In this document: positions 18,958 to 64,000 of the stretch, in pieces
How the letters are laid out: each line of letters opens with the position of its first letter
Numbering within the stretch: position 1 is the first letter of the stretch
Sequence record: MF327008
Strand: one strand, 5' to 3'
DNA length: 64,000 nt
Source: Shigella phage Sf24
Notes under the pieces: model-generated
The model's input: the letters and a program-made list of their open reading frames with translations, nothing else
The model's database searches: none
Told to the model about the DNA's origin: nothing
Position numbers and translations under genes: made by a program

Positions 18958-18990
18958 ATTACTATACCATAGTCTTGTCAGCTTGTAAAC
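18958..18990 (-). promoter_or_regulatory. T4-type early promoter upstream of dmd
   Basis: GTTTAC ... TGGTATAGT on minus strand, overlapping end of gene 41. Confidence 0.5.
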
Positions 18991-39736: not shown

Positions 39737-40207
39737 TTAATCATGTTTCCACACCCCATCGGTATTTGACCAAAGTCGCTGATTATCTGATCCTCGCCAC
39801 AGCTTTTTGGTCGGAAGATTTTTCTCATACTTCCCATCAATAATAACATCAACATATTTAAGCATTTCTAGTTGTTTAATATCTTCAAATTTATATCCTG
39901 TCCACAACCAAATGCTTTTATTGGGATAAAGATTTTTTACTGTTTGAACAATGCAATGAACAACATCTCGGTTATCAGGATAGAGAGGGTCTCCTCCAGT
40001 TATAGTTAATCCTTCTATATAATCATTATTCAAACATTCAATTAATTGCTCTAGTGTTTCACCAGTGAATGGAACACCGTTTCTAGCGTTCCATGTTGAT
40101 TTATTATAACACCCTTCGCATTTATGCAAACAACCTGTAACGAAAAGAACGACCCTGCAACCAGGGCCATTCACAAAATCACAAGGATAAAATCTATCAT
40201 AATTCAT
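39737..40207 (-). CDS. nrdG: anaerobic ribonucleotide reductase activating protein NrdG
   Basis: 156 aa; radical-SAM cysteine cluster CLHKCEGC. Confidence 0.88.
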   Translation of the reverse strand: MNYDRFYPCDFVNGPGCRVVLFVTGCLHKCEGCYNKSTWNARNGVPFTGETLEQLIECLNNDYIEGLTITGGDPLYPDNRDVVHCIVQTVKNLYPNKSIWLWTGYKFEDIKQLEMLKYVDVIIDGKYEKNLPTKKLWRGSDNQRLWSNTDGVWKHD

Positions 40208-42533: not shown

Positions 42534-43019
42534 TCAAGTATTGTAAAACATTTGATTCAATCGCTTATATTGCCGAATCTTTTGGTCAGAAAAAGAAATT
42601 TGAGTTTCAAGCCATTCAATATATTCTGCCGCAGCTTGCATCAAATTTCCTTCATAGCCATCGTTATTTTCTTGTGCAGCTAATTTAGCTAATGCATATG
42701 AAATACGTTCACCTTGAAAATCGGCTTTAGGCTTCTGAACAACTTGATTAGTTCGCTCTACAACTTCTTCAATTTCGCCATTTTCGACTGATTCAGTATT
42801 CCACAAGCACCAATACGTAATTGGCTTATCGTAGATGTTAATAATCTTTCCATCAGAAAGTTCAATTTCAATAATTCCAGTGTCAGGCTCTATATCATCT
42901 TCACATTCTTTTGCAAGTTCACGAACTTTAAAGACAGTACCTGCACTAAGTTCCGGCCAGTAATTACACAGCCCTTTATCAGCACGATTAATTCTAAACC
43001 ACTTATTTACTGCAATCAT
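42534..43019 (-). CDS. pin: Pin-like protease inhibitor
   Basis: ~161 aa from internal Met, position after gene 49. Confidence 0.55.
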   Translation of the reverse strand: MIAVNKWFRINRADKGLCNYWPELSAGTVFKVRELAKECEDDIEPDTGIIEIELSDGKIINIYDKPITYWCLWNTESVENGEIEEVVERTNQVVQKPKADFQGERISYALAKLAAQENNDGYEGNLMQAAAEYIEWLETQISFSDQKIRQYKRLNQMFYNT

Positions 43020-43142
43020 GTCCCATCTCCATATCAATTAAGTCATTTATTGTTGGTTCATTATATACTGTTTCTTCATCAGTGTAAACCGGTTCTTCCG
43101 GCTCTGGCTCTACAGTTTCCCATCTAGCCGCCCACCAAGGTT

Positions 43143-43463
43143 TTATAGCGTAATCCATTCTCGTACTGTCTGAGTTACTACACGTTCACGGGGCTCGACT
43201 AGTTCAACAGTCGGAACTGCATAATACCAGTCAGAATGATAAGAACCTGAGCGAGTTTCATTTACGGAAACATGTACATTGTGTTTTGGACTAAAATAAA
43301 CACACTGACGATATTGGCATTTACCATCTTGCACCCAGTCTTCTATTTCGATAGGTTTAAGATAATCCGAAAAATCGAAATCATAATTTTCTGAAAATGC
43401 ATCATGGTCTTCGATGATTTCACTCAGAACTGCATCAACATCTAATTTATTTTCAATATTCAT
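43143..43463 (-). CDS. hypothetical protein
   Basis: 106-aa ORF. Confidence 0.5.
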   Translation of the reverse strand: MNIENKLDVDAVLSEIIEDHDAFSENYDFDFSDYLKPIEIEDWVQDGKCQYRQCVYFSPKHNVHVSVNETRSGSYHSDWYYAVPTVELVEPRERVVTQTVREWITL

Positions 43464-49775: not shown

Positions 49776-50090
49776 CTAAAAGAAACTTCTTTCACAATTT
49801 TTTCCACTGAACCAAGCGCTCACTGCTTTCTTAGTCTCAGGAGCAGTGTTATCCATAAACCATTCAAAAGCAGCCTTTTTATGATTCTGGAGGGCTTCTC
49901 GGGCTTTAATCTGCTCACGGTCTATTAACACTAACATATGAGCCTTTCTTGTCACCAAGGGCTTCTTATGATTTTTTGAATACTCCCAATCATTTGTCCA
50001 TCGCATCGTTGTTGCGAACTGAAATACTGCTTCTTTAATTTTAGTTTCGTAAATTTCACGAGCCTTTGAGTATAACATCATTACCTCCAT
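49776..50090 (-). CDS. hypothetical protein
   Basis: 104-aa ORF. Confidence 0.5.
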   Translation of the reverse strand: MEVMMLYSKAREIYETKIKEAVFQFATTMRWTNDWEYSKNHKKPLVTRKAHMLVLIDREQIKAREALQNHKKAAFEWFMDNTAPETKKAVSAWFSGKNCERSFF

Positions 50091-50179
50091 TTACCAGTTT
50101 AATTCTAGTCATCTTTTTGATGGCAGTCCATATAATCTATTTCTGAACTGCCTTTTTATCTTAGAAGGCCTCTTATGAA

Positions 50180-51148
50180 TTATTTCAGAAGAGTAACCTC
50201 AGCGATTTCTTCCCAACCGTTTTTGTCGGTCATAATAAAGTCAGCAAGATAAAGAGCAGTACGCAGTGAAACATTGCGTAAACGATTAACATTGACTTTC
50301 ATCCATGATAATGCTTTATAAGTTTCTTCATCAGAAAGACCGCGCTTTTGCATCATGTCAGTTGAAAGAATAACATCTTCAACCCTGACCATAATTTCTT
50401 CATTAGTGTGAACACCCAAATCCAAATAAACTGAGCGGGACACTAATGCTTGTAAGTGTGGGGCAAGTTTAGTACCACGGTCTAATTCGCGGTCAATGTC
50501 AACGTTTGTGATAAAAACAATCGTTCCTTTAAATTCAAACTCACGCTCAATGCCTTTTTCTTCTAAGTAAGAAGATGCAGTGCTCCAGCAGACTTTACGG
50601 GTCTCTCCAGTGTCCAGAGCAGCTTTTAGAAGATTAAGAATGTCCATATCAGAGAAAACATCCACATCATCAATCAAAAGGACAGAATTCTCTTCACGAT
50701 TATTCCAAAGCTGTTCATAAAGACCAATACCAGAGATTTTACCATTAATGCTTTTATACTCAATGTATCCAATATCATTTGCTTTATTTAAAGCTTTATC
50801 TAAAGAATACGTTTTACCAATACCTGCTGCTCCCGAGATAATTAATGAACGAATGTTTCCGTTAATAATACCATTCGTCATCATTCCCATAACATTAAAT
50901 CTTTTATTAATGCGGGTTTTCATATCTTCATACGATTCTTTAACTTCTTCAACTTTTACACCATCATATGAAATGTCTGATTTGTAAACCCAAACACCGC
51001 GACGTTTACCGTCAATTTCAACAAAAACTTTACCATCTCCTTGTGCATCTACCGGAGCATTATCCGGGAACCATTCGCCTAAGAGCTCAAAAGTTCCAGA
51101 GATTTCTTTACCGAAGTAGATACCCTTATTGATAGTTACAGTTTTCAT
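50180..51148 (-). CDS. AAA+/P-loop ATPase
   Basis: Walker A GAAGIGKT, Walker B VLLIDDVD; start MKTVTINKG with GGAGAA RBS. Confidence 0.65.
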   Translation of the reverse strand: MKTVTINKGIYFGKEISGTFELLGEWFPDNAPVDAQGDGKVFVEIDGKRRGVWVYKSDISYDGVKVEEVKESYEDMKTRINKRFNVMGMMTNGIINGNIRSLIISGAAGIGKTYSLDKALNKANDIGYIEYKSINGKISGIGLYEQLWNNREENSVLLIDDVDVFSDMDILNLLKAALDTGETRKVCWSTASSYLEEKGIEREFEFKGTIVFITNVDIDRELDRGTKLAPHLQALVSRSVYLDLGVHTNEEIMVRVEDVILSTDMMQKRGLSDEETYKALSWMKVNVNRLRNVSLRTALYLADFIMTDKNGWEEIAEVTLLK

Positions 51149-51180
51149 TTTATTCTCCAAATCCGTATCAGTTGATAGTT

Positions 51181-51216
51181 GTATAGTACCACAAAGCTTT
51201 ATGCTTGTAAACAGTT
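51181..51216 (-). promoter_or_regulatory. T4-type early promoter in repeated cassette
   Basis: GTTTAC ... TGGTACTATAC. Confidence 0.5.
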
Positions 51217-51243
51217 TTGTGAAAAATTTTTGAAATAAAAAAA

Positions 51244-51261
51244 AGGGAGCCCGAAGGCTCC
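51244..51261 (-). terminator. intrinsic terminator
   Basis: GGGAGCC-CGAA-GGCTCCC hairpin with U-run on minus strand. Confidence 0.65.
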
Positions 51262-51264
51262 CTA

Positions 51265-52278
51265 TCATTTATAATAACTTCGGTGGTTTTCAAGATAGAC
51301 CTTCTCAAGGAAGTCATCCCAAAAACTCATGTCTACTTTTTGCTGCATACCGTTCTTAGAAGCTTCAGTAGATGCTGCTTCTACTTGATCGACCACATCT
51401 TCCAAAAACTCTTGAACCGTTTTAAATGGATGCTTACCCAACTTCACGTCGAGAATAAAGGGAGCATCTTTGAGTGGATAAATCAAGTCGCCAGTTTTGT
51501 AAATTTCCAATAGTTGAAGTCCACCACGACAAGCATGACTCAGAGCTTTCCAATCAATACCTTCATTAGCTTCGGCTTTACGAGCACGTTCACCATATTC
51601 AGCATCTAATTTGTTCAGTGACTGCTTAAGCTCAATAAGAGAAAGCGTTGTCTGATATTTACGACCCAATACAGTGTAGAACGTTTGTGGGCCTGTTTTC
51701 TTATGATTATGGAACACCCATTCACAGAATTCGTTTTCTGGAAGACGATGCTTAATATCTTCAACTTTAGTGCGACGCTGCTTAATAGAACCATCTTCTT
51801 GGTAATCAACCCATTGCTCAGGGATTTGATTAACTACTTTCAATACATCGCGTAATGCAGCCAAACGAGAACCCTTGACACCATATTTAGAAGCTTGCTT
51901 GCGAACATATCCTAAATAGGATTTCATGTTAGTCGTATAAAAACGAGAACGGTTGTCTTGAATAAACTTCCACACATCAGGCAAATCAGATTTAACCACT
52001 AGTTCAGGTGGAGTGTGAAGCATATCCAATGCTACAGTTTCACCATCTGCTGCTAATTTAAAGAAATATTTAAGACTGTATAGTTCATGGTCAATATCAT
52101 CTTTAGTGTTTTTAGATGATGTGTTATTAGTGTTTTTACTCATGTGCTCTTTGACATTTCCGATAAGAATATCACGAGCAGGAGGAACAAAAATTTCTTT
52201 AAAATCTACATCAGATTCTGGGGTAGAAGTTCCATAAAGATGACTACCAAAATAGCTTTTCATTACTGTTTTCATCAT
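51265..52278 (-). CDS. nucleotidyltransferase-fold protein
   Basis: GSHLYGTSTPESDVD matches pol-beta-type GS...DxD signature. Confidence 0.55.
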   Translation of the reverse strand: MMKTVMKSYFGSHLYGTSTPESDVDFKEIFVPPARDILIGNVKEHMSKNTNNTSSKNTKDDIDHELYSLKYFFKLAADGETVALDMLHTPPELVVKSDLPDVWKFIQDNRSRFYTTNMKSYLGYVRKQASKYGVKGSRLAALRDVLKVVNQIPEQWVDYQEDGSIKQRRTKVEDIKHRLPENEFCEWVFHNHKKTGPQTFYTVLGRKYQTTLSLIELKQSLNKLDAEYGERARKAEANEGIDWKALSHACRGGLQLLEIYKTGDLIYPLKDAPFILDVKLGKHPFKTVQEFLEDVVDQVEAASTEASKNGMQQKVDMSFWDDFLEKVYLENHRSYYK

Positions 52279-52736
52279 TCAGCCTTATATTCAATAACAG
52301 GACATACTTTAGCTTTACGAGCTTTTAAAAATTCAACGATAATCGATTTCTTGGGTTGAATAGGAGGTAAACCTTTATACGCCCTATCAATATTTTCTAT
52401 GTGTAAAGCATAATCCTTTTTCCATTTATAATCTTTATATTTTTCATGCAAATGTGCAGGAATAACAAATGAACCGATAATAAGTAAAACAACCAAAAGC
52501 GCAAGTATAAATGCTGATGGAATAAGAGTCCATAAACTACCAAAAATAAGCCATTTCTGCATGATTTCTGCGCAGATAATAGTTAGACCTGCGAGTATAG
52601 TACATCCGAAAAAAGAAACGAAAAATGTAGGAATAACAACAGACCAAAAATATGCACACAGTGTCTTAGGTCGTTTCCATTCATCATTAAACATTTTGAA
52701 TAATTTATAGTGCCAAGAGTTTTCATTAATAATCAT
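52275..52736 (-). CDS. membrane protein co-transcribed with the nucleotidyltransferase
   Basis: three predicted TM helices; stop overlaps downstream start. Confidence 0.55.
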   Translation of the reverse strand: MIINENSWHYKLFKMFNDEWKRPKTLCAYFWSVVIPTFFVSFFGCTILAGLTIICAEIMQKWLIFGSLWTLIPSAFILALLVVLLIIGSFVIPAHLHEKYKDYKWKKDYALHIENIDRAYKGLPPIQPKKSIIVEFLKARKAKVCPVIEYKAE

Positions 52737-52738
52737 AA

Positions 52739-53260
52739 TTATCCTTTCATTGAAGGTGTAACAGTTGTTAAATACTTAATCATAGCTTCAGCTTCTGATT
52801 TTGATAATGAAATTTCTCCATTGTTTTGACGAATAGAAATAAAATCCGGATGACGGTCACCACCAGCTTTTAAAATACACATATAAGTATCAGTTTCATC
52901 TTCAATATCTGAAATGATTGAAGCAGTTCCGCATGAATGTGGTTTTTGATAAATCAATGCAGCTTTTCTTCCGCCATTTGACTGTTCATAAACTTTTAAT
53001 ACATCAAACAAATCACTTCTTTTATCAATAGCTAAAATGTTATTTTCATCTTCAATGTTAAATCCTTCGGATACTTCATAAAGTGTCACCCATAAATCGC
53101 CAATATCAATAACAGCGTTCACTTTTCCATGACTTTCAAGAGCATGACAAATTTTCTTGATTTCGTCATAACTCATTTTAATAATATCATCTCCTTGACT
53201 AAGGAAGATGTCATTTTTAAATTCAACACGAATTAAACCGCTTCCACTTGAAATAAACAT
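52739..53260 (-). CDS. hypothetical protein, paralog pair member
   Basis: C-terminal ISLSKSEAEAMIKYLTTVTPSM resembles next ORF. Confidence 0.55.
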   Translation of the reverse strand: MFISSGSGLIRVEFKNDIFLSQGDDIIKMSYDEIKKICHALESHGKVNAVIDIGDLWVTLYEVSEGFNIEDENNILAIDKRSDLFDVLKVYEQSNGGRKAALIYQKPHSCGTASIISDIEDETDTYMCILKAGGDRHPDFISIRQNNGEISLSKSEAEAMIKYLTTVTPSMKG

Positions 53261-53266
53261 ATTTCC

Positions 53267-53812
53267 TCACTTTGAAATCATAGTTGGAATAACAGAATCA
53301 AGATAAATCTTTAGCGCAATAGCTTCGTCTTTGTTTAATGTAATGATATGTGATCGAAAATCGTCAATTTGACGAATAGATACTACATCTCCCTCTTCAT
53401 AGCATTTTGAAACATTTAAAATAGTTTCATCATTCTGATTACAGGAGTTAGTAATAATAGCATTACATTTTTTAAACCATTTTAAACTATGTTTTCTTTC
53501 ATTAGAATAATAAAAATATTTAATCTTATCTATAAAACTATCCCAATGGATAACTGATAAGCATATTGACTCGCTTTCAATATTAAATCCTGGGCATGAA
53601 GAATAAAAATGAATTTTATGCTCATCATTAATGCTTACAATTTTATCAGTATAAGGATTTTCAATTTTGGTTAAATGAATGATTTCACTAGGCGTAAAAT
53701 ACAGCATATCGTCTTCTTGTGTCAAACGATACATATTATTTACTTTTTCTATAGCCAATTCACCAAAAAGTGAACTAACTTCTAATACTAATCGTTTCGC
53801 CGCTACCGTCAT
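53267..53812 (-). CDS. hypothetical protein, paralog pair member
   Basis: C-terminal ITLNKDEAIALKIYLDSVIPTM. Confidence 0.55.
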   Translation of the reverse strand: MTVAAKRLVLEVSSLFGELAIEKVNNMYRLTQEDDMLYFTPSEIIHLTKIENPYTDKIVSINDEHKIHFYSSCPGFNIESESICLSVIHWDSFIDKIKYFYYSNERKHSLKWFKKCNAIITNSCNQNDETILNVSKCYEEGDVVSIRQIDDFRSHIITLNKDEAIALKIYLDSVIPTMISK

Positions 53813-53940
53813 TACATACTCCTCTGAATCATATCAATAATGGTGTTCACCAGATTATAAGTAAACATTGGGTAATTATATTGAATCACCACATACACAA
53901 CAAACAAAACTTTCATTCTCTTCTCCTTGGCAGTTGACAA

Positions 53941-53976
53941 GATTACTATACCATAACCTTGCCAACTTGTAAACCA
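53941..53976 (-). promoter_or_regulatory. T4-type early promoter
   Basis: GTTTAC ... TGGTATAGTAAT with flanking imperfect inverted repeat. Confidence 0.45.
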
Positions 53977-54150
53977 TTAAATGACGTTTTCAATAAAATT
54001 CTGAAGCTTTGTGTGAGCATCAACCATGATTTTCATTTCTTCTTTTGCGAAAGCTGTACCTCTTTCCCGAGCAGAATACTCATAGTCAGAAACTGCATTA
54101 GCATATTCTTCAATTAGCTTCATTAAAAACATCTGCTTTTCAGTTTTCAT
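53977..54150 (-). CDS. small acidic helical protein (~57 aa), paralog family
   Basis: MKTEKQMFLMKLIEEYANAV; GGTGG RBS; coordinates approximate. Confidence 0.4.
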   Translation of the reverse strand: MKTEKQMFLMKLIEEYANAVSDYEYSARERGTAFAKEEMKIMVDAHTKLQNFIENVI

Positions 54151-54334
54151 TATTCCACCTAATCATTTCAAGATATTGAACTAACTTAGCTTTGGATTTA
54201 TCCAAATCTCTTTTAGCTGCTTCTATACCGTCGTATGAATATCCTTCACAATGCTCAACTGCTAATTGATATGAATCTATTTCAATATCACGTGCTAATT
54301 TAATGATTTTTTCAAACTGTTCACGTGTTAGCAT
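54140..54334 (-). CDS. small acidic helical protein, paralog family
   Basis: MLTREQFEKIIKLARDIE. Confidence 0.5.
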   Translation of the reverse strand: MLTREQFEKIIKLARDIEIDSYQLAVEHCEGYSYDGIEAAKRDLDKSKAKLVQYLEMIRWNNEN

Positions 54335-54336
54335 AA

Positions 54337-54540
54337 TTAAACTCTCGTATTATGATCGATAATTTCATCAAGAAACATATCTAACGCTTCTAAAGCATTA
54401 TCAACTTTAGCTTCAAGTTCTTCAATACTTTTATTTGCAATGCCTGACGAAAACCAAGCAAAGTCACTAAGTTCCTCATCTGCTTTACGAATTAAAGCTA
54501 CCAATTCCTTAATTTTATCCGCTTGTTCGATACTAATCAT
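54337..54540 (-). CDS. small acidic helical protein, paralog family
   Basis: [24 protein letters not shown]. Confidence 0.5.
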   Translation of the reverse strand: MISIEQADKIKELVALIRKADEELSDFAWFSSGIANKSIEELEAKVDNALEALDMFLDEIIDHNTRV

Positions 54541-54728
54541 TATTCCACCACATATGAAAGAGAGAATATTGCACACGCCATGTGAGTTGCAACTTCATCA
54601 CACATATTATAACGTTTCTTAAGAAATTCTACAAGTTCTTCACTAGTAACTTCATCCATGTCGACGAAAAAATCACCATTAATGATGACGTAGATATTTC
54701 CTTCTTGATTGAGTGCTTCAATTTTCAT
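54540..54728 (-). CDS. hypothetical small protein
   Basis: start MKIEALNQ with GAGGAG RBS after promoter cassette. Confidence 0.5.
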
Positions 54729-54754
54729 GATGTTCTCCTCTTTATCCGATAGTT

Positions 54755-54787
54755 GTATAGTACCACAGCTCAAACGGAAAGTAAACC
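54755..54787 (-). promoter_or_regulatory. T4-type early promoter in repeated cassette
   Basis: GTTTAC ... TGGTACTATAC. Confidence 0.5.
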
Positions 54788-54802
54788 GGTAAAATGAAAA
54801 AA

Positions 54803-54818
54803 GTCTCCCGAAGGAGAC
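54803..54818 (-). terminator. intrinsic terminator
   Basis: GTCTCC-CGAA-GGAGAC hairpin followed by U-run on minus strand. Confidence 0.65.
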
Positions 54819-54823
54819 TAATG

Positions 54824-55210
54824 TTATTCGAGGGAAAGAAGATATTTACTCTGGTAAAACATTCCAGTAATATCATCTATCGTGCTTTGAATGGCTGGAG
54901 GCATTTCTTTATAAATGCTGTTAGATTGGTCTAGTATACGATCAATCATTTTAATTGTGTCGGTAGGAAGTTTACTAGCATCTGGAGTTGAAGGTGTGTA
55001 TTTTCTACCAGAATACCCCAAATATTGCTCACCAAATTTATCAATCAAATCTGGCAACTCGGAGAAAATAAAATCGTATGCTTTGTGTCTAGCATAACTT
55101 TTAGTTTCAAAATGTGCAGAATGAAAATAAGCTTGTGCAGCCATTAATAAACCTAAGTATTCATCTGCCTTTGAAGGTTTTCCACTTTGTGAAAAGTCGC
55201 TGAATTTCAT
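54824..55210 (-). CDS. hypothetical protein (rI.-1-position)
   Basis: 128-aa ORF adjacent to rI. Confidence 0.55.
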
Positions 55211-55500
55211 TCAGTCTCCAATTTAATGTTCATAATTCTAGCGTATGATTGTGCCATCTCCGCGCCTCGTTCTATACATTCAAAATCAGAAGAGCACGGG
55301 TCATTTTTATAGGTCGTTCTCATAAAACTATAGAATTGTTCAGACGATTCTACGCTTTTATTTTCAAAAAGCATATAAACGTGCCTAATACCAGATTCCA
55401 TAAATTTATCAAAATGAGGATCGACATTCGCTTCAATCGATGGAGATAAAACAAATGACAATCCTAGCATGGCAAAAAGTGCCGTTGCTTTTAAGGCCAT
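55207..55500 (-). CDS. rI: lysis inhibition regulator RI
   Basis: 97 aa MALKATALFAMLGLSFVLSPSIEA signal-anchor, T4 RI-like. Confidence 0.88.
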   Translation of the reverse strand: MALKATALFAMLGLSFVLSPSIEANVDPHFDKFMESGIRHVYMLFENKSVESSEQFYSFMRTTYKNDPCSSDFECIERGAEMAQSYARIMNIKLETE

Positions 55501-55512
55501 AAAGGCCTCCTA

Positions 55513-55725
55513 TCATTTTTGTCCTGTATTTACTTTATGCCGATGCACGGCCTTAACTTTATCAAGGTATTTTTCAAAATTTCGCAATCTAGTATAGTCT
55601 GCCGGAGATTGGTTGAGTGATACTTCTCGACGCAAAGCTGAAATGATATTTCCAACTTCCCTACGAATTTCATCTAATTGAAGAACAGTAAGATTGCGAA
55701 GTTGCTTTTCAGTTAATTGTAGCAT
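55513..55725 (-). CDS. hypothetical small protein (rI.1-position)
   Basis: 70-aa ORF. Confidence 0.5.
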
Positions 55726-55767
55726 ATATACCCCTTTAGTTAGATAAACCTATTTATAACTTTTGCA

Positions 55768-56349
55768 CTAACCGAGCTTTTTAGTTAATTCATTCCAATG
55801 TTTTCTACACAAAGAAACATAAATTTCATCACCAATACAGATTTGATTACCTTCTTTAACTGGTGTTCCATCTTCCATTAATCGAGCTGTCATAATCGCT
55901 TTTTTACCACAATGACAAACTGCCTTTAGTTCAATAAGTTTATCTGCAATCGCTAAAAGTTCTTTAGAACCTTCAAACAATTTTCCAGCGAAATCAGTCC
56001 TTAATCCATAAGCCATAACAGGAACATTATATGTATCAACAATTCGGCTCAATTGATGTACTTGTTCAGTTTTTAAAAATTGGGCTTCATCTACAAATAC
56101 GCAATGAATATCTTTTTGTGCTTCAGCCCATTTATAGAACTCGAAAATATCCATATCATCTGTAATAATATTCGCTTCCTGTTTAATTCCAATGCGAGAA
56201 ACAACTTCACAGACAGAATCGCGAGTATCAATAGCAGGCTTAAGAACTAATACACTCATTCCGCGTTCTTTATAATTATGTGCAGCAGTTAAAAGAGAAG
56301 CAGATTTTCCAGCATTCATTGCTGCATAAGTAAAAATTAAACTCGCCAT
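55768..56349 (-). CDS. tk: thymidine kinase
   Basis: 193 aa; P-loop MNAGKSASLL; T4 Tk-like. Confidence 0.92.
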   Translation of the reverse strand: MASLIFTYAAMNAGKSASLLTAAHNYKERGMSVLVLKPAIDTRDSVCEVVSRIGIKQEANIITDDMDIFEFYKWAEAQKDIHCVFVDEAQFLKTEQVHQLSRIVDTYNVPVMAYGLRTDFAGKLFEGSKELLAIADKLIELKAVCHCGKKAIMTARLMEDGTPVKEGNQICIGDEIYVSLCRKHWNELTKKLG

Positions 56350-56350
56350 T

Positions 56351-56539
56351 TTAGTCCTTAGTTAAATTTTCTAAATATGTTTCTAAATCATTTTCAGCTT
56401 TATCGATAGATTTTACTAATTCGTAATATGTTTCGGCATCTCCATAATCAGAAGATAATTCAAAAGACAAATCCTTTTCTAAACTAATAATTTCACCAAC
56501 TAAAAATAATATTTCGTTCTTTTGTTCACGAGTAATCAT
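56351..56539 (-). CDS. small acidic helical protein, paralog family
   Basis: MITREQKNEILFLVGEIISLEKDL. Confidence 0.5.
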   Translation of the reverse strand: MITREQKNEILFLVGEIISLEKDLSFELSSDYGDAETYYELVKSIDKAENDLETYLENLTKD

Positions 56540-56721
56540 AAAGAATTTATATAATCAATGAGTTCTTGTTCTTTATTATCGAATTCTTTAGAAAGTTCTT
56601 CGTATTCATTTGCATTAAAAGGACCGCATTCATCACAAACTTTTTCCAATTCACTGTTTTTATCCATAACTTCGTGGATAAGAGAAAAGAGTTTGTCTTT
56701 TTGTTCTTTGCTTAAACTCAT
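56536..56721 (-). CDS. small acidic helical protein, paralog family
   Basis: MSLSKEQKDKLFSLIHEVMDKNSEL. Confidence 0.5.
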   Translation of the reverse strand: MSLSKEQKDKLFSLIHEVMDKNSELEKVCDECGPFNANEYEELSKEFDNKEQELIDYINSL

Positions 56722-56887
56722 ATATTAATTTCCAAAAGTTTTAAAATAATTCGCTTTTGCTTAAATATTTCCACAGTTAAATGATCAGTATCTTTTTGAC
56801 CAATTCCAATGGCAAAACCTTTATTAACAGCGAGTTCAATTAAATTATCAAGTTCACGTAACACTTCATATTGTAACTCAGAACTAT

Positions 56888-57094
56888 TCATTTCGGTTTA
56901 CCTTCTTTAACGAAATCTGGATAAGGATAAAATCCCGAATAAAATCCTTCACCTTTATGATTGATGCATCCTTTATTAGAACAATAGCACCAATAATCGA
57001 AATCACAAGCCATTTCATCGTTGCATAAAGCAAAAACAACCGGCCATTTACACTTTTCACAGTGGGCATTTTTAAGAATACTAGTTTGGCTCAT
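56888..57094 (-). CDS. Cys-rich small protein
   Basis: CEKCKW...CYCSNKGC pattern. Confidence 0.45.
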   Translation of the reverse strand: MSQTSILKNAHCEKCKWPVVFALCNDEMACDFDYWCYCSNKGCINHKGEGFYSGFYPYPDFVKEGKPK

Positions 57095-57303
57095 AACCAT
57101 GTAACCTTTAAGCAATATTCTTCTACATGTTGTTTACGACCTTTCTTATCAATAAAGGTATATTCAACGAATGTCCCAATGTAGTCTTTATCTACATCAT
57201 GTGGACTATTAATTGGACATTTAGTACGGCAAATGCGTTCCCATTGACGAATAATTACTGCTTTGTTTTTAGGATCAAACGGATGTGGGTAATGCACTTT
57301 CAT
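57091..57303 (-). CDS. hypothetical small protein
   Basis: 70-aa ORF. Confidence 0.45.
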   Translation of the reverse strand: MKVHYPHPFDPKNKAVIIRQWERICRTKCPINSPHDVDKDYIGTFVEYTFIDKKGRKQHVEEYCLKVTWL

Positions 57304-57754
57304 AATCCACCACTATTAAATCAATATCAGGAGTAAACATGTCGATTAATTTAGAAACCTTATCCCAATCGCCGCCAGCAATACCACAACCTATGCGTGG
57401 AATGTAAATTACCGGTTTAAACAAAAGGGTTTCTGCCTGTAGATTTAATTCTATCATGCAGTTTACTAAAGCACCATAATCAAGATTAGGACCTGGTTCG
57501 TATTGCGTATACAGGTTATAGCATATACCAAATCCCGTAGGACTATGTTTAAAAACAATAGACATATCGCCTAATTTATCGCGAGAACCGTACTCAGTAG
57601 TGGTTTTATCTATTTCTAAAATTTTGGGATAGGCTCTGGCTAATTGACCCGCTACACCTGAACCCATAGTATGAAAACAATTGCACCCGTGCGCAATAAT
57701 ATTACCTTGAAGAAATAGGGCGACAATATCGCCCTTGATATATTTTACAATCAT
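57275..57754 (-). CDS. macro-domain protein (ADP-ribose binding/hydrolase fold)
   Basis: GDIVALFLQGNIIAHGCNC...MGSGVAGQLARAYP and IGCGIAGGDW resemble the macro-domain glycine-rich loops. Confidence 0.6.
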   Translation of the reverse strand: MIVKYIKGDIVALFLQGNIIAHGCNCFHTMGSGVAGQLARAYPKILEIDKTTTEYGSRDKLGDMSIVFKHSPTGFGICYNLYTQYEPGPNLDYGALVNCMIELNLQAETLLFKPVIYIPRIGCGIAGGDWDKVSKLIDMFTPDIDLIVVDYESALPTSV

Positions 57755-58092
57755 CTAGTACTCAATCCTCGATTATAAGAATCTACCAAACGGTCAACCA
57801 TTGAATGACAAGCGGCTTTATCTTTCTCCTCCGCAACTGAACATTCTAAGGTATTCCACTTTTTAGCATATCGTTTTAACAATGTATCATTTTTGTATCT
57901 GCTTGATTTATCTCTTTCTCCGTCTTTATATGCATATATTAATTTCTGCGCAAATTCAGCTTGGCATGCTTTATTTTTCCCGCAATAATCCGCTGCAGTA
58001 CGGTTTACATACTCTCTAATTTCAGTATATGATGTATCTGCTAACGCAGAAAATGAAATTAATCCTATACATAAAACCAAAATTTTAGTCAT
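57751..58092 (-). CDS. secreted Cys-containing protein
   Basis: signal peptide MTKILVLCIGLISFSALA. Confidence 0.5.
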   Translation of the reverse strand: MTKILVLCIGLISFSALADTSYTEIREYVNRTAADYCGKNKACQAEFAQKLIYAYKDGERDKSSRYKNDTLLKRYAKKWNTLECSVAEEKDKAACHSMVDRLVDSYNRGLSTR

Positions 58093-58630
58093 TTACTATT
58101 TCCAAAAGTTTATTATTTTTAAGGTAATTAGCCTTTTCTAGGACTTCAGAAGCATATTTAGAACCTGCTTTAACATTCCATCCCGAATTATAAGAGGATA
58201 TTGCTTTTCTTATATCGCCCTTATGTATATTTAACCAATAAGAAAGTTCAATGTACGCCCAGGAAGCTGAATTGGACCGTTTATTCAACATTCTTTTTAT
58301 TTCAGCATCGGTCATATTATAACCAAGTTCCTTAACTCTTGCTCGCATAGTAGGCAAATAATTTTGGAACATTCCGTAGGCGTGATGCTTTGGTTTAGAT
58401 TTTAAATTAACTCCGCCAGAGCTTTCTTGCCATAAAATAGCAGCCATTATATGACCTAATCCGCTCTTGTGGATATTTTTGTGTGTTTTATATTTTCCAT
58501 CCTTAGAAAATTGTTCCCCGAATTGATACGCGTAACGCATGTTATCGAGTTGGACATTACTGAAAGTATGCTCGGAGCTATGTGCCATCATTGAAATGGC
58601 CAATAGACCAGCGAGTAGTGCTTTTCTCAT
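58085..58630 (-). CDS. periplasmic lytic transglycosylase (SLT domain)
   Basis: signal peptide; motifs ILWQESSGG, AYGMFQ, SYNSG. Confidence 0.65.
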   Translation of the reverse strand: MRKALLAGLLAISMMAHSSEHTFSNVQLDNMRYAYQFGEQFSKDGKYKTHKNIHKSGLGHIMAAILWQESSGGVNLKSKPKHHAYGMFQNYLPTMRARVKELGYNMTDAEIKRMLNKRSNSASWAYIELSYWLNIHKGDIRKAISSYNSGWNVKAGSKYASEVLEKANYLKNNKLLEIVND

Positions 58631-58637
58631 GCTTACC

Positions 58638-59099
58638 TCATTGAGTTTTAATTACTGCTTTAGAAGCCTTTCCTGGTAAACGACGACTGTTGATAATTGC
58701 CATCCTGCATTGAAGTGACGGGTTTTTGAACTTCTCATTAGGCTTACAAACCGTAAATCCAAGCCAAAGATTTCCATCTGTGATTTCTAAACGTCCAGGA
58801 CGATATTCAACCCCATCAATAAAATCCTCGTCAATGTCAGGACGCGGAGGCATACTCAGGAATTCATTAACTTCTAAAACATGGTCTTTTATTTTATGGA
58901 ATAATTCAAAAACATATGTCTCATCAATCTCCCGTTGAATTGCACGATCAAGAAGATGTTGAGAATATTTTAGATGAAACGATGAGACTCCTGCTGCCTT
59001 TGATGCCTCACGAATCTCATTGTTAATTTGACGAAACTCCGACTCAAAGTGACGACGAAGCTTATTTCGACGGATAAAAACTTCTGTATTGATAGTCAT
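58638..59099 (-). CDS. regB: endoribonuclease RegB
   Basis: 153 aa MTINTEVFIRRNKLRRHFESEFRQ, T4 RegB-like. Confidence 0.9.
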   Translation of the reverse strand: MTINTEVFIRRNKLRRHFESEFRQINNEIREASKAAGVSSFHLKYSQHLLDRAIQREIDETYVFELFHKIKDHVLEVNEFLSMPPRPDIDEDFIDGVEYRPGRLEITDGNLWLGFTVCKPNEKFKNPSLQCRMAIINSRRLPGKASKAVIKTQ

Positions 59100-59126
59100 G
59101 TTATTCTCCTCTTAACTGATAGAAAA

Positions 59127-59157
59127 ATTATACCACAGTCAAGAGGAAAAGTAAACA
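59127..59157 (-). promoter_or_regulatory. T4-type early promoter upstream of regB
   Basis: GTTTAC ... TGTGGTATAAT on minus strand. Confidence 0.6.
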
Positions 59158-59158
59158 A

Positions 59159-59437
59159 TTATTCTTTAAATCTAATCAATTTATTCATAGACTTTGAAAC
59201 TTCTGCACGAACCTCATGCAAGTTTTTAAGCTGTTCAAGACGCTGTTCATAGTAAGCAATTTCATCTTCTTCGAGACAGTCCTGTGAATCTTCTTTAAGA
59301 TAACGTGCATAGTCCTGGAAAGCTTTACGGACTACTTCCTGGAAGTCATCAAGACTTTGAATTTTCTTAGGAGCAACAGATACACGACGAGGGGCAGTAT
59401 AATACTCATAACCAAACCCTGCACTTAATTGAGCCAT
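59159..59437 (-). CDS. hypothetical protein
   Basis: start likely at internal Met. Confidence 0.45.
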
Positions 59438-59703
59438 TAGTATTTTTCCTCTGGTTGGAACACTGCACGACAAGCCCACATACTGGCTTCTTTGAGTTTC
59501 GTTTTAGCAATAGTTAACTGATCGAGGCTTTCAGCATAATTCTTCGCGAGTTCATCATCTTCACAATTATCTAGTGCTTCCCAGAATTCATCGTATAAAG
59601 CGTCAAAGATAAGTCCTAAACGAACTTCAGCGTCTTTAATAGCATTCACTTTACCGATTTTCTCTTCAGTATGCGGCTTATAACCTTTAATGTCTTCAAT
59701 CAT
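59437..59703 (-). CDS. hypothetical protein
   Basis: start likely at internal Met MIEDIKG. Confidence 0.45.
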
Positions 59704-59917
59704 ATTTGACTTCCTCACCAGTACATAAATTATATTCAACTAAACGAATAGGTTCATGAATGCCATATCCTTGAACAGAAATTTCTGTTGTAGGATAAAT
59801 TCCATCAATACCACCCATATTCCATGCTTCATTAAATTGCTGTTCGCCTGAATTACTAAACCACTCGGCGAAAGCATTTAACACATCTTTAGAACCTTCA
59901 ATAATTATCTTTGCCAT
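59696..59917 (-). CDS. hypothetical small protein
   Basis: 73-aa ORF. Confidence 0.5.
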   Translation of the reverse strand: MAKIIIEGSKDVLNAFAEWFSNSGEQQFNEAWNMGGIDGIYPTTEISVQGYGIHEPIRLVEYNLCTGEEVKYD

Positions 59918-60279
59918 TACAAACTCTCAGTAAAGGTACGAGCGATAACGTCGCGCTGCTGTTCCGGAGTCAGAGAGTTAAAGCGAACTGCATAACCGGA
60001 TACACGGATGGTCAGCTGCGGATATTTTTCCGGATGCTTAACTGCATCTTCCAGAGTTTCACGACGCAGAACGTTAACATTCAGGTGTTGACCACCTTCA
60101 ATTTTAACCGTAGGCTGTGGTTCAATTTCAATTTCACGGGCATGCAAACCGTAGAAAATTTCCGGGTCTACAAAAGAGTCCTCTTTAAAGGTTTTAGAGA
60201 CAATAATTCGTGCTTGAATACCATCTTCAAAATAAATAGTACCTTTATGCGTGCCTTCAAGAATTTGATATGCTTTCAT
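59917..60279 (-). CDS. autonomous glycyl radical cofactor, GrcA/YfiD-like (T4 Y06I-like)
   Basis: C-terminus [59 protein letters not shown] with glycyl-radical motif RVSGYAV; GC-richer, host-like composition. Confidence 0.85.
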
Positions 60280-60285
60280 ATAACC

Positions 60286-60615
60286 TCAATTAGAAAATAA
60301 ATTTATCCAAGATTGTTCTTTAATTAAAAATGGCTCAGAATCATATGCCATTAAACTTTGGGTGATTAGTCCTTTAAAAGGTCCATCAATAAATTCCATG
60401 GTAAAATATGGAATTTTATTCATTAATCTTGCATTAGGAGCAGTGCACAAAACTCTGCATCCTTTGAATACGCCTTTTTGTAATTTGTATTGCTTAGGAT
60501 AAAATTCGCTCAAGACGTTGTTATTTGCCAAAATTTCAAAATGATTCACCAATTTATTTTTAATAGTTTTTGGCGAAAAATAAAGATATTCGAAAAGTTG
60601 CGTGTCTGTCATCAT
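60286..60615 (-). CDS. hypothetical protein
   Basis: start likely at internal Met. Confidence 0.45.
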   Translation of the reverse strand: MMTDTQLFEYLYFSPKTIKNKLVNHFEILANNNVLSEFYPKQYKLQKGVFKGCRVLCTAPNARLMNKIPYFTMEFIDGPFKGLITQSLMAYDSEPFLIKEQSWINLFSN

Positions 60616-61115
60616 TGCATTCCGATTATGAAAAACTGTGGACGAGTAATACCACCAATGCAACATTTAATATTACAGCAGCAGTGTACAGTGTCAATAT
60701 GGACACTATAAATCTTATCCATATCAGGAGATTTGACAGGCTCGTCAATTATATACAAAATTCGCGAAAGCGATAAACCTCTGAACTTACTTCCTTTATT
60801 ACCGATAAAACTACGGACAGAATCGGTAAATAAACGGAATCGAATATCATCGCTAGAATAACGAGAAAATTCTTTTTTAATGTGGCCTGCAGAAATTTTA
60901 GCGTAAGCTGAAGTATTAGAAAGAACAATAACTGTTCCACCGTCATACAACCAATTAGCGGCAAAATTAGTTACTGCAGTTGATTTACCAGATTGACGTC
61001 CACCATCTAGTCGAAGTGTGCAGTACTGTTTAAGTAATTCTTCAAATGGCGGGATATATTCGTTTTTACAAATTTCTTCTACTCTAGCGTCAGAATGGTG
61101 TGTAAAAGCATTCAT
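60612..61115 (-). CDS. small P-loop NTPase
   Basis: Walker A GGRQSGKST; Walker B-like IIDEP. Confidence 0.55.
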   Translation of the reverse strand: MNAFTHHSDARVEEICKNEYIPPFEELLKQYCTLRLDGGRQSGKSTAVTNFAANWLYDGGTVIVLSNTSAYAKISAGHIKKEFSRYSSDDIRFRLFTDSVRSFIGNKGSKFRGLSLSRILYIIDEPVKSPDMDKIYSVHIDTVHCCCNIKCCIGGITRPQFFIIGMQ

Positions 61116-61303
61116 CAGGATAGATAAGGACCAGTTAAAAATGTTCTCATTTTATTCTCTCTAAATTTGGGCCATTCCGTGGCGCATGAATTGTCCATTT
61201 CTGTATTTACCCATTACCGCACTCAGGCTCGACCTTATTACAGGTTGGCGGGAATCCCTCATAGAATCATGAGGTCCAGGTTGTTCCCATATTTCTTATT
61301 TGC

Positions 61304-61777
61304 TTATTTGAATGATTTGACGTACTGAATAGAGCCTTTGCTATTCACGAAAGCGATTTTACCATTTTTGTTATACATGGTAGCAGTACGCTGATAGCCA
61401 TAAGTTTGCTTACCAGATTGATAACCAACTAATGCAAAATTATCTTCACCCATTTTATTCTGTTTGGCGCGGATACGTTCATGACCGTGCGCCATAAGAA
61501 CCTTAGCATCGCCAGTTGAAATTGATCTACGAGTTTTTTCATCTTCAACTGTATTAACAAAGTCGTCAAATGAATCAAATTTAGCGTGAGATTTATTATA
61601 CAGTTTTCCATCTACTGCATAATTATATCCCTGTACATCCATCTCAACTTCTGTACCATCATCCAATACAGCAGTGATTTTTTGACCTTTTTTAAATTTC
61701 AAAAGATCAGTAAAAGATTCAGCAATAATTTGAGAATTAATAGCTGCTTCAGTGATAAATTCTTGATATGTTTTCAT
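61304..61777 (-). CDS. internal protein (IP) with capsid targeting sequence
   Basis: N-terminus MKTYQEFITEA matches the T4 IP CTS consensus MKTYQEFIAEA. Confidence 0.75.
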   Translation of the reverse strand: MKTYQEFITEAAINSQIIAESFTDLLKFKKGQKITAVLDDGTEVEMDVQGYNYAVDGKLYNKSHAKFDSFDDFVNTVEDEKTRRSISTGDAKVLMAHGHERIRAKQNKMGEDNFALVGYQSGKQTYGYQRTATMYNKNGKIAFVNSKGSIQYVKSFK

Positions 61778-61786
61778 ATGTTTCCT

Positions 61787-62203
61787 TTAAATGTAAATAT
61801 TTTTACCGTAATACTTATACCAGTGTGGTTTCATTAAAATTTTTTCATCAAGTCGTTGTTGACTCAATTTAATAGCTGATTTGCATGGATTATAATCATT
61901 TTTCCATTCTACTGGAATATCGCTGATGTCAGGAACTTCAGTATCTTTTATACTGAACCCTCGTTTTAAGCATTCCGTTATAATGTCTAATTGACGCTTT
62001 CGCAAAAATTCTAACTTATCGTAAAAGAACGTAACATGACCAGAACCTAAAATAAACTCGGAAGATATTTTAAAATCTTTAACGCGCTTACCGTTTGCCA
62101 CATGCTTACGAACTATACCAAAAACACGCGGCAATTCACGGTATTCTGCGATTAAATGTTGATCAGCAAGTTCAGATACTAAAGTCAAATTAATACGAGT
62201 CAT
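61787..62203 (-). CDS. denV: endonuclease V, pyrimidine dimer glycosylase DenV
   Basis: 138 aa [30 protein letters not shown]4 DenV-like. Confidence 0.93.
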
Positions 62204-62225
62204 TTTATCCCTCCAAGTAACTGTG

Positions 62226-62259
62226 AATATACTATCACAATTCTAGGAGAAAGTAAACA
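62226..62259 (-). promoter_or_regulatory. T4-type early promoter upstream of denV
   Basis: GTTTAC and TGTGATAGTAT on minus strand. Confidence 0.45.
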
Positions 62260-62262
62260 ACT

Positions 62263-62793
<531 letters not shown>

Positions 62794-63249
62794 TTAAAAG
62801 AGGCTGTTCATTATTCGGTAAAGTGAAGGACCCATCACATATTGCCACTGAGTACGAGGAATAAGGGCAAAAGCATCCATCTCTGGAATCATAACACCAT
62901 CTTTATTTTCAAAATAAGACTCGCAATGGCAATTTCTGAACATCTCATGCTCTACTGGAATCGTATAATAAAATAACTGTAAGTCTTTATTACTAGAATA
63001 TTTAAATACACCTAGGTCTTCTAGAAGGTCTGGATTATAATTGTTAAAACCAGTCTCTTCTGAGCATTCTCTTCGTGCTGCATCTAATGCGCTTAAATCA
63101 GAATTTTCTACACGCCCCTTTGGAATATCCCAGCGATGTGCCATCATTCCAGGCTTACGAGAACCAGTAACTCGTCCCATAAATAAATCTTTATCTTCTG
63201 TCATAAAGATAATACCAGCTGATAATGTTTTCATTTTAATTTCCTGCAT
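62794..63249 (-). CDS. nudE: Nudix hydrolase NudE
   Basis: Nudix box GRVENSDLSALDAARRECSEETGF. Confidence 0.85.
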   Translation of the reverse strand: MQEIKMKTLSAGIIFMTEDKDLFMGRVTGSRKPGMMAHRWDIPKGRVENSDLSALDAARRECSEETGFNNYNPDLLEDLGVFKYSSNKDLQLFYYTIPVEHEMFRNCHCESYFENKDGVMIPEMDAFALIPRTQWQYVMGPSLYRIMNSLF

Positions 63250-63719
63250 TCAGTGATAAAATTATTTAAATTTTGAGTATATTTCTTTTCATCAAAAATC
63301 TTTTGCTGCCTACGTAACCGCCATGGCATTTCAATGAACACGCACCATATTCCTGATAGTACTGCTGCTGTAAAAATATTAACAAGTATAATTAAAAGAA
63401 TCCAATCTTCCGTTCTGCCTACTGGACTTTCTCCAAAGAAGCAAAATACAAATGATGTCACAGGAAAACTAATAATATACCACAGAATAACCTTCTTATC
63501 TGTGAACCAATCAGCGTTCGTTAACTTAGCACGACCATTTTGAATACACACGAATTTATCATCTGTTACAGTAGATGGCTTAACTGCTTGATATCCCATT
63601 CTAAACTCCCTAATTAATCGTTTCTTTGTATCTTTAGAACAGCCACTCCAATCAACTCTATCAACTGAAATGCCATCGTCCCCATCATCTAAATCATACC
63701 AGCGAGTTTTTAAAATCAT
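63231..63719 (-). CDS. membrane protein, paralog pair
   Basis: two TM helices; C-terminus NFITECRKLK. Confidence 0.5.
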   Translation of the reverse strand: MILKTRWYDLDDGDDGISVDRVDWSGCSKDTKKRLIREFRMGYQAVKPSTVTDDKFVCIQNGRAKLTNADWFTDKKVILWYIISFPVTSFVFCFFGESPVGRTEDWILLIILVNIFTAAVLSGIWCVFIEMPWRLRRQQKIFDEKKYTQNLNNFITECRKLK

Positions 63720-63985
63720 TTAATTTTCCTACAATCACTCACAAACTCTTCCATTGATTCTTTTTCAATATAAGACATGTAGTTATTATATTCATTTAAT
63801 TGTATTTTGTAATCCTTTTTTCTTTGCCAATTTATTTTAAAATTATCATAATGAAAATATAACATGGTACCAAAGAATGAAAATAATGAAATCGCTATAG
63901 TATAACGAAGTTCACTCCAAACTTCTATTATATCTACTATACCGCTGACGTTACTGCGGATGTTTAAAATAATACAGTCAATCAT
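63716..63985 (-). CDS. membrane protein, paralog pair
   Basis: hydrophobic core; C-terminus EFVSDCRKIK. Confidence 0.5.
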   Translation of the reverse strand: MIDCIILNIRSNVSGIVDIIEVWSELRYTIAISLFSFFGTMLYFHYDNFKINWQRKKDYKIQLNEYNNYMSYIEKESMEEFVSDCRKIK

Positions 63986-64000
63986 TAATCCAATAAGACT

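Follow-up and report, generated by a model that had tools for sequence, protein, structure and literature searches.

A patch of host grcA sequence within the glycyl-radical gene vs.6 of T-even phages, likely placed there by recurrent gene conversion

The 64-kb stretch of DNA analysed here as a whole, hereafter the window, comes from Shigella phage Sf24 (MF327008) and is a segment of a T4-type (Tequatrovirus) genome, in which lysozyme e, denV and the region around vs.6 all lie on the minus strand. The gene vs.6 encodes a homolog of the bacterial glycyl-radical cofactor GrcA (YfiD), known in T4 as Y06I, and its 3' half contains the patch of host-like DNA that we describe. Many Tequatrovirus genomes match the roughly 2.2 kb surrounding vs.6 at 96-97% identity and label the open reading frame (ORF) either vs.6 or “autonomous glycyl radical cofactor GrcA”. 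The order of the locus is that of T4, with vs.6 placed between vs.7 and vs.5 and near regB and denV. The encoded protein is 100% identical to T4 Y06I, and GrcA is also the RefSeq name for the phage protein. At the DNA level, the gene differs from the T4 record at 8 nucleotides (nt), one of which falls on a site that is polymorphic in E. coli (T in the window, C in T4).

The product of vs.6 is a stand-alone protein of 120 amino acids that ends in a glycyl-radical domain, as expected of a member of the GrcA family. Residues 61-101 match Pfam PF01228 (Gly_radical) with 66.8 bits (cutoff 22.2), and residues 92-98 form the radical-glycine motif RVSGYAV, in which Gly95 is equivalent in the alignment to G102 of GrcA and G734 of PflB. 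The best solved structure is that of E. coli YfiD/GrcA (PDB 6OWR), to which residues 22-120 align with YfiD 28-127 (E 8.6e-42), and the second is pyruvate formate-lyase (PFL), with residues 58-120 aligned to PflB 697-759 (E 5.2e-26). Over residues 61-120 the protein is the same as E. coli GrcA 68-127, the glycine of RVSGY included. The first-pass annotation of this DNA, made from the sequence alone, had recognized the C-terminal match to GrcA and put it at about 57 residues; it extends over 60. It had also named T4 Y06I as a described GrcA homolog, which agrees with the literature: according to PMC8683613, which cites Wagner et al. 2001 (BBRC 285:456), T4 Y06I is activated by the PFL-activating enzyme (PFL-AE) and restores oxygen-cleaved PFL. 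The same paper describes residues 1-60 of YfiD as disordered and residues 61-127 as sharing the fold of PFL 693-759, and reports that YfiD's N-terminal half helps binding and activation (PMC8683613). The vs.6 protein of the window, being identical in sequence to T4 Y06I, is predicted to rescue oxygen-cleaved PFL as published for the T4 protein. The host activase PflA would install the radical on Gly95, and the C-terminal domain would slot into the oxygen-cleaved host PFL and replace its lost C-terminus. Fermentative production of acetyl-CoA, ATP and formate would thereby be sustained when infection takes place in low-oxygen habitats. Both the gene and what its product does biochemically were already known, and the value of the present analysis lies in evolution and in method.

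Aligned at the DNA level to E. coli grcA (L001:402-785), as the first-pass annotation had suggested for placing the junction, vs.6 falls into three parts. Identity is 79/178 (44%) over gene nt 1-178, 175/175 over nt 179-353, and 7/10 over nt 354-363, where the phage reads GAG AGT TTG TAA and the host GAA AGC CTG TAA, all three differences being synonymous. The maximum chi-square breakpoint lies at gene nt 179 (window position 60101), and none of 2000 permutations reached the observed value (0/2000). The gene thus contains a tract that is near-identical to the host, synonymous sites included, and bounded by sharp breakpoints, as expected of a conversion patch. The 5' junction, at phage codon 60/61 (GrcA 67/68), coincides both with the start of the structured radical domain and with the point from which phage and host DNA are alignable. 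At the other end, the stop codon of vs.6 overlaps the ATG of the gene at the vs.5 position (TAATG), and the host homology ends there. Since the identity likewise breaks off some 10 nt short of the stop codon, the alignment indicates that the host DNA sits inside the gene as a patch flanked by two junctions. Nearly all of the structured glycyl-radical domain is encoded by this patch. The JK45-type lineage and Jiaodavirus both have the terminal GAG and CTA states, and this sharing argues that the last bases are ancestral, unconverted sequence.

The patch segment is matched at 95-99% identity by all complete E. coli genomes searched (5,426/5,426). When positions 50001-64000 of the window were compared with the E. 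coli genomes by megablast, the sole match was to 59913-60101, accompanied by a weaker match of the same segment to pflB, and positions 1-25000 and 25001-50000 gave no match in megablast searches against the 5,426 genomes. This was so although the window carries nrdD and a gene for a DnaB-like helicase, both of which have counterparts in the host. The G+C content (GC) of the patch is 0.486 versus 0.343 for the window, and 0.064% of 175-nt segments reach the value of the patch. Within vs.6, the 5' half has a GC of 0.36 and the 3' half one of 0.48, and GC at third codon positions (GC3) rises from 0.25 to 0.41, the latter equal to that of E. coli grcA; the composition of the tract thus matches that of the donor. 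When codon typicality was scored against the phage’s own codon usage in 61-codon chunks of phage ORFs, the 5' half fell at the 42nd percentile and the 3' half in the lowest 4.6%. The patch contains five CTG codons (phage frequency 0.07) and three CCG codons (0.14), which are rare in the phage; the codon-typicality signal is moderate because several preferred codons are common to host and phage. The description of the 3' half as GC-rich with host-like codons in the first-pass annotation was therefore accurate, and neither of the observations that it named as evidence to the contrary, an identity to host DNA no higher than that of other phage genes and a uniform composition, was made. Only two other 175-nt stretches in the window are as GC-rich as the patch. 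One (approximately 19223-19412) sits inside the ORF for the DnaB-like helicase (18990-20417), and the other (approximately 43079-43256) covers the gap that separates the ORF at 42534-43037 from that at 43143-43463, extending into the second of them. Megablast gave no E. coli match for either stretch.

The N-terminal half, of about 60 amino acids, had been described in the first-pass annotation as phage-specific. Contrary to this, the alignment to GrcA reaches back to vs.6 residue 20-22 in BLASTP, in the comparison with the sequence of the YfiD structure and in the TIGR04365 profile (NCBIfam, IPR011140), the last of which spans residues 20-120. The N-terminal half aligns to GrcA residues 28-67 and to TIGR04365 from position 25 onwards, and it is conserved across genera of T4-like phages. 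The same N-terminal pattern occurs in Jiaodavirus, Karamvirus, Slopekvirus and Pseudotevenvirus, while Krischvirus, Aeromonas phages, T5-like phages and jumbo phages have forms that are more diverged. In all, vs.6 has roughly 1,500 phage homologs. In the 5' half, the window and Jiaodavirus differ at 46-49 of the 177 nt compared. Karamvirus, Slopekvirus, Pseudotevenvirus, Krischvirus, T5-like and jumbo phages contain full-length homologs with a near-invariant 3' protein, and the DNA of these 3' halves is only 63-85% identical to any host grcA (81 genes), with near-identity to none of the sampled host genes. Since these genera have full-length homologs with 3' halves that are not host-like, the phage gene predates the E. 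coli-identical DNA. We therefore read vs.6 as an old, full-length phage homolog of grcA that appears to have been partly overwritten, and its N-terminus as something other than an unrelated module. The mosaic acquisition proposed in the first-pass annotation holds in that the 3' half is host-derived with a sharp junction, but not in the sense of a fragment fused to a phage leader. The non-converted phage Cronuts is identical to E. coli GrcA over residues 61-119 despite about 17% DNA divergence; conversion hardly alters the protein, and the process may therefore be largely neutral. Host-type residues at positions 77 and 81 are found both in the converted Jiaodavirus and in the non-converted Slopekvirus, and this match to the host type may leave room for selection.

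To infer the direction of transfer, we compared the patch with grcA of enterobacterial hosts. GC3 is uniform along E. coli grcA (0.42 and 0.41 in the two halves), and the 3' half of the host gene is normal among the Enterobacteriaceae, with 92% identity to Citrobacter and 85% to Salmonella. In a neighbour-joining (NJ) tree of 156 patch positions, Tequatrovirus and Mosigvirus were nested within Escherichia with a bootstrap support of 0.88, and the window was placed beside E. coli. At the sites where Escherichia sp. MOD1-EC7003 (L002) differs, the window has the E. coli state (3/3). The patch groups by host, either with Escherichia or, in Jiaodavirus, with K. pneumoniae, and the 5' halves group by phage lineage, as expected of a gene of mixed ancestry. 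Taken together, the composition and the tree indicate that the transfer went from host to phage. Transfer from phage to host was considered and rejected, given the uniform composition of host grcA and the nesting of the patch within Escherichia.

The two lineages of E. coli phages differ far less in the patch than in the neighbouring genes. Between the window and the JK45/Mosigvirus lineage, divergence is 28-29% in vs.7, 28% in vs.5 and 28-31% in vs.4. It drops to 10-11% in the 5' half of vs.6 and to 0.6-4% in the patch (1/175 for L101). By these values, the patch is much younger than the split of the two lineages. E. coli grcA carries a synonymous T/C polymorphism at nt 222, the sole difference between the two alleles fetched (L001:623 versus L181:273), and the identity bands across E. 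coli genomes are consistent with about half of them carrying each allele. Both alleles occur in phages, T in the window and C in T4 and most others. In the phage collection, 626 records match the E. coli query allele at 95-99%, 19 at 90-95% and the rest at 87% or less, and no phage record is 100% identical to it over the full 185 nt. All aligned phages that bear the patch retain phage-specific bases at both of its edges. These patterns suggest that conversion within the E. coli phages probably happened more than once.

Several single records add to this picture. Tequatroviruses isolated on Salmonella, Yersinia, Hafnia, Proteus and Pseudomonas still have an E. coli-type patch (97-98%), and the patch may indicate the long-term host of a phage better than the strain used for isolation. 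The Tequatrovirus Escherichia phage vB_EcoM_Nami (L178:421-783) differs from E. coli at about 13 patch sites, including those that give N66H and I91S in the radical domain, and its patch looks like an older or decaying copy. In a 163-kb T4-like contig from IMG/VR (L127:1501-1902), the C-terminus of the vs.6 homolog is of the PflB type rather than the GrcA type (NVMNREMLLEAMEDPTKYPQ...LTKEQQRDVISRTFTEAM), with GC3 rising from 0.19 to 0.40, and the tract may be a patch from a host pflB or tdcE gene. A human-associated IMG/VR contig (L116:1492-1893) shares exact runs of 53-56 nt with Haemophilus grcA, represented by H. parainfluenzae (L074) and a metagenome-assembled genome of an uncultured Haemophilus (L073), and its sister contigs L114 and L117 differ at several of these sites. 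The runs may mark a short tract converted from yet another, third group of hosts.

Phages of Klebsiella provide an independent second case. The sample of host grcA consisted of 80 loci from a GTDB scan, without K. pneumoniae, K. oxytoca and K. aerogenes, and against this sample the 3' halves of the Jiaodavirus genes were 82-88% host-like. The gene of K. pneumoniae (L176, CP125156.1) was taken from PLSDB, where this 5.37-Mb chromosome is listed as a plasmid. The grcA gene of K. aerogenes NCTC10006 (L177, LR134122.1) contains a one-base frameshift in a run of A, most likely a sequencing error. Against K. pneumoniae grcA, the Jiaodavirus 3' halves are 96-99% identical: phage Shinkou matches at 96.0% across nt 4-176 of its 3' half (186 nt), about 156 nt of phage 15882-6-2 contain 2 differences, and the IMG/VR contig L173 has none over the approximately 85 nt present. 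All three diverge from the host gene in the last 25 nt or so. Consistently, GC3 in the Jiaodavirus gene rises from 0.19 to 0.59 in the 3' half, within the range of the Klebsiella-group hosts (0.49-0.64), the 3' half encodes the Klebsiella-type residues RRETLLDAVEHPEKYPQ, and K. pneumoniae and three Jiaodavirus sequences group in the NJ tree with a bootstrap support of 0.90. The 5' breakpoint lies at the same codon as in the E. coli phages. In 15882-6-2 it is shifted a few bases further upstream, which gives V60 as in the host and points to separate tract ends. On the alignments, a minimum of two host-to-phage events, one from E. coli and one from Klebsiella, is firmly established. The event is thus recurrent and host-specific, which goes beyond what the first-pass annotation had claimed.

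The features of the region are collected in Table 1. In T4, ipIII and ipII lie immediately upstream of denV; in the window, lysozyme e directly abuts denV (62203-62263) and the two genes appear to be absent. Between denV and vs.8 there is an ORF of 157 amino acids (61304-61777, minus strand) that matches Pfam DUF7412 with 318 bits. There is no gene at this position in the T4 record, so the ORF is a lineage-variable insertion. The gene at the vs.5 position has no Pfam match. In the promoter scan, the number of matches was no higher than in shuffled controls, and the candidate promoter listed in the table is a consensus match alone.

Table 1. Features in and around vs.6 in the window
Feature	Position	Strand	Basis
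vs.6 / Y06I coding sequence, GrcA homolog	59917-60279	minus	ATG-to-TAA ORF, 120 amino acids plus stop
vs.6 5' half, gene nt 1-178 (codons 1-59 and first base of codon 60)	60102-60279	minus	phage-lineage N-terminus
Host-derived patch, gene nt 179-353, phage residues 60-118 = GrcA 67-125	59927-60101	minus	175/175 identity
GGT codon of Gly95, radical glycine in RVSGYAV	59995-59997	minus	sequence and GrcA/PflB alignments
Last 10 nt of vs.6, putatively unconverted phage sequence at 3' junction	59917-59926	minus	three synonymous differences
Downstream gene, vs.5 position, 73 amino acids	59696-59917	minus	ORF; gene order as in T4
Upstream gene, vs.7 position	60286-60666	minus	ORF
Candidate promoter for vs.7 and vs.6, sigma-70-like hexamer pair	60697-60670	minus	consensus match
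T4 lysozyme e	62263-62757	minus	window ORF
denV	61787-62203	minus	window ORF

The explanation that we consider very likely is gene conversion, in which host grcA overwrote the 3' part of a pre-existing phage homolog within the region of shared homology, recurrently and with both E. coli and Klebsiella as donors. The anatomy of the patch, its junctions, the direction of transfer and the recurrence across two host genera can be read from the alignments, and from them we infer the mechanism. Very strong protein constraint on the radical domain keeps stretches of phage and host DNA homologous in the 3' half. During infection, homologous recombination or recombination-primed repair would then copy host grcA as a template over the phage 3' half, with a phage recombination system of the UvsX type using the template. 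A conversion tract needs homology at both ends and is therefore confined to the alignable region that codes for the radical domain, and for this reason independent events begin at a common 5' limit and spare the last bases. Once a first event had taken place, the homology would be perfect, which would make further conversion easier and keep the patch close to the host sequence. A more far-reaching possibility, which we put forward tentatively and at somewhat less than an even chance, is that the radical domain is in continuing concerted evolution with grcA of the current host, with lytic T-even phages recurrently using the host chromosome as a template and the limits of homology setting the limits of the tract. 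Such concerted evolution could be adaptive, by keeping the domain matched to PflA and PflB of the host or by purging mutations such as those in Nami. It may also extend to other hosts, as hinted by the matches to Haemophilus grcA and by the phage with a PflB-type C-terminus.

Other explanations for the host-identical DNA have to be weighed against gene conversion. A fragment of the host gene encoding the radical domain could have been captured once, fused to an unrelated N-terminus in an ancestor of the T-even phages, and then inherited vertically. The sharp 5' junction, the shift in composition and the presence of the patch in 626 related phages would all fit such a fusion, but the N-terminal half is itself GrcA-like, many phage genera have full-length homologs with 3' halves that are not host-like, and another junction lies close to the stop codon. 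Vertical descent is also difficult to reconcile with a patch divergence (0.6-4%) far below that of the flanks between lineages (28-31%), and with the Klebsiella phages, which have the same 5' half and hold a Klebsiella-derived patch instead. The alignments likewise contradict independent captures with unrelated N-termini, and a capture, being largely refuted, is highly improbable. Conversion by the host could also have taken place only once per host genus and no longer be ongoing, with the patch subsequently spread from phage to phage through the conserved 3' half of vs.6. T-even phages recombine freely, nothing else in a region otherwise diverged by 28% is as similar as the conserved 3' half, the base at the 5' boundary and the GAG and AGT variants at the end are common to all the E. 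coli phages, and none of them is 100% identical to the E. coli query allele over the full 185 nt. Against this, both of the nt-222 alleles of E. coli occur in phages, the patch of the window has 0/175 differences from E. coli while its 5' half has 3-6/177 from its closest relatives, and identical boundaries are equally expected from the limits of homology. This scenario, which we consider unlikely though by no means negligible, still needs host-to-phage conversion at least twice. The suggestion that there was no transfer at all, and that extreme purifying selection and shared codon preference maintain the identity of phage and host, can draw on a radical domain protein that is nearly invariant in all phages and hosts, and on host-preferred codons (CGT, GTT, GGT and GAA) that are also preferred by the phage. 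It is contradicted by Cronuts, Miller and 05F, which have the same or nearly the same amino acids and differ from E. coli at 17-25% of the bases, by the phage-rare codons in the patch (CTG and CCG), and by the Klebsiella phages, which match the codons of Klebsiella. The non-converted lineages refute it, and its chance is vanishingly small. The same is true of an assembly chimera or contamination with host reads: phage stocks are grown on E. coli and host reads are present in sequencing libraries, but the same junctions are seen in IMG/VR contigs and in hundreds of phages that many laboratories sequenced independently, the reading frame is unbroken, and phage-specific synonymous variants are conserved at both edges. 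We give an artefact practically no weight.

A separate question is whether vs.6 serves as a spare radical domain for the anaerobic ribonucleotide reductase NrdD of the phage rather than for host PFL; a functional pairing with NrdD had been stated in the first-pass annotation. Both proteins contain the Pfam Gly_radical domain, and a role in nucleotide metabolism was proposed in an early comparative study (PMC1524935). In Aeromonas phage PX29 (L094:1501-1878), the vs.6 homolog directly follows nrdD and nrdG, and in Yersinia phage fHe-Yen9-04 (L095:995-1357) one unannotated gene separates the homolog from the gene for the large subunit of the reductase. The domain in vs.6, however, copies the C-terminus of PflB and GrcA (E 5e-26 for PflB), and none of the 33 PDB matches at E<=0.001 was named as an anaerobic ribonucleotide reductase. 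The comparison of vs.6 with the NrdD of the window (40204-42021, Pfam NRDD 572 bits) gave a BLASTP E value of 2.6 in an alignment that lies off the radical site, so that there is no sign of a mimic of NrdD. In the window, as in T4-type genomes, vs.6 is located 18 kb from nrdD, and the published biochemistry shows rescue of PFL. A role as a spare part for NrdD is thus very improbable, and the proposed pairing is not supported.

Some observations weigh against our interpretation. The TIGR04365 score of vs.6 is 153.3 bits, below the equivalog cutoff of 170, because the N-terminal half has diverged. Selection for translation of the overlapping downstream gene could have produced the three terminal differences at a later time, the sharing of T and C at nt 222 could be due to parallel mutation, and the low divergence of the patch could also have been produced by a single host-to-phage event followed by spread from phage to phage. 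In phage PKO111, at least 13 patch sites depart from K. pneumoniae, in a comparison with a host sample that is without K. oxytoca. The use of a host template by a UvsX-type system is inferred. Finally, T4 degrades the DNA of its host early in infection, which should limit the opportunity for conversion.

In a literature search, we found no paper on the DNA identity between vs.6 and host grcA or on recurrent, host-specific conversion of this gene, with an earlier remark possible in a review of the T4 genome (PMC150520). The vs.6 patch documents host-to-phage gene conversion in nature with unusual clarity, and does so in the best-studied group of lytic phages, with a named donor and an independent replicate in Klebsiella. 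It shows that the gene pools of T-even phages and their hosts are not sealed from each other, even for short homologous segments, and the grcA/vs.6 pair provides a ready natural assay for rates of host-phage recombination. It also calls for caution, as host-like DNA in metabolic genes of phages may mean recent conversion and not recent capture of a whole gene. As a marker of the host genus, the patch could help to assign hosts to uncultured T4-like contigs.

In comparison with known systems, vs.6 resembles E. coli GrcA (YfiD, 6OWR) in being a small stand-alone protein with a C-terminal domain that copies PflB 697-759 and a weakly homologous N-terminal half. It differs from GrcA in being 7 residues shorter and in having an N-terminal half that is about 30% identical and shows a phage-lineage pattern. 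The E. coli gene is located between ung and eamB, whereas vs.6 is located in a cluster of early-region genes of a lytic phage. From T4 Y06I, which is the identical protein at the same genomic position, there is no functional difference. Marker rescue and recombination between plasmids and phage in T4 show that cytosine-containing, non-phage DNA with homology can be copied into progeny by phage recombination. Those experiments are engineered, with long perfect homology and multicopy plasmids, whereas the natural template for vs.6 would be a chromosomal gene present in one copy, and the initial event had to cross sequence that is about 80% identical. The closest precedent is cyanophage psbA. Like vs.6, psbA and psbD are host-like metabolic genes in T4-like phages with patchy GC and segments exchanged with host copies; intragenic recombination between host and phage has been described for them, and the phage copy tends to follow the group to which the host belongs (Zeidner et al. 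2005; Sullivan et al. 2006, PMC1484495). Unlike psbA, the patch in vs.6 is a single clean tract with junctions mapped within a few bases and as much as 100% identity to a host species that can be named, the direction is clearly from host to phage, and the phages are enterobacterial T-even phages that destroy the DNA of their host. The recipient in vs.6 is, moreover, an anciently diverged phage homolog and not a recently captured whole gene.

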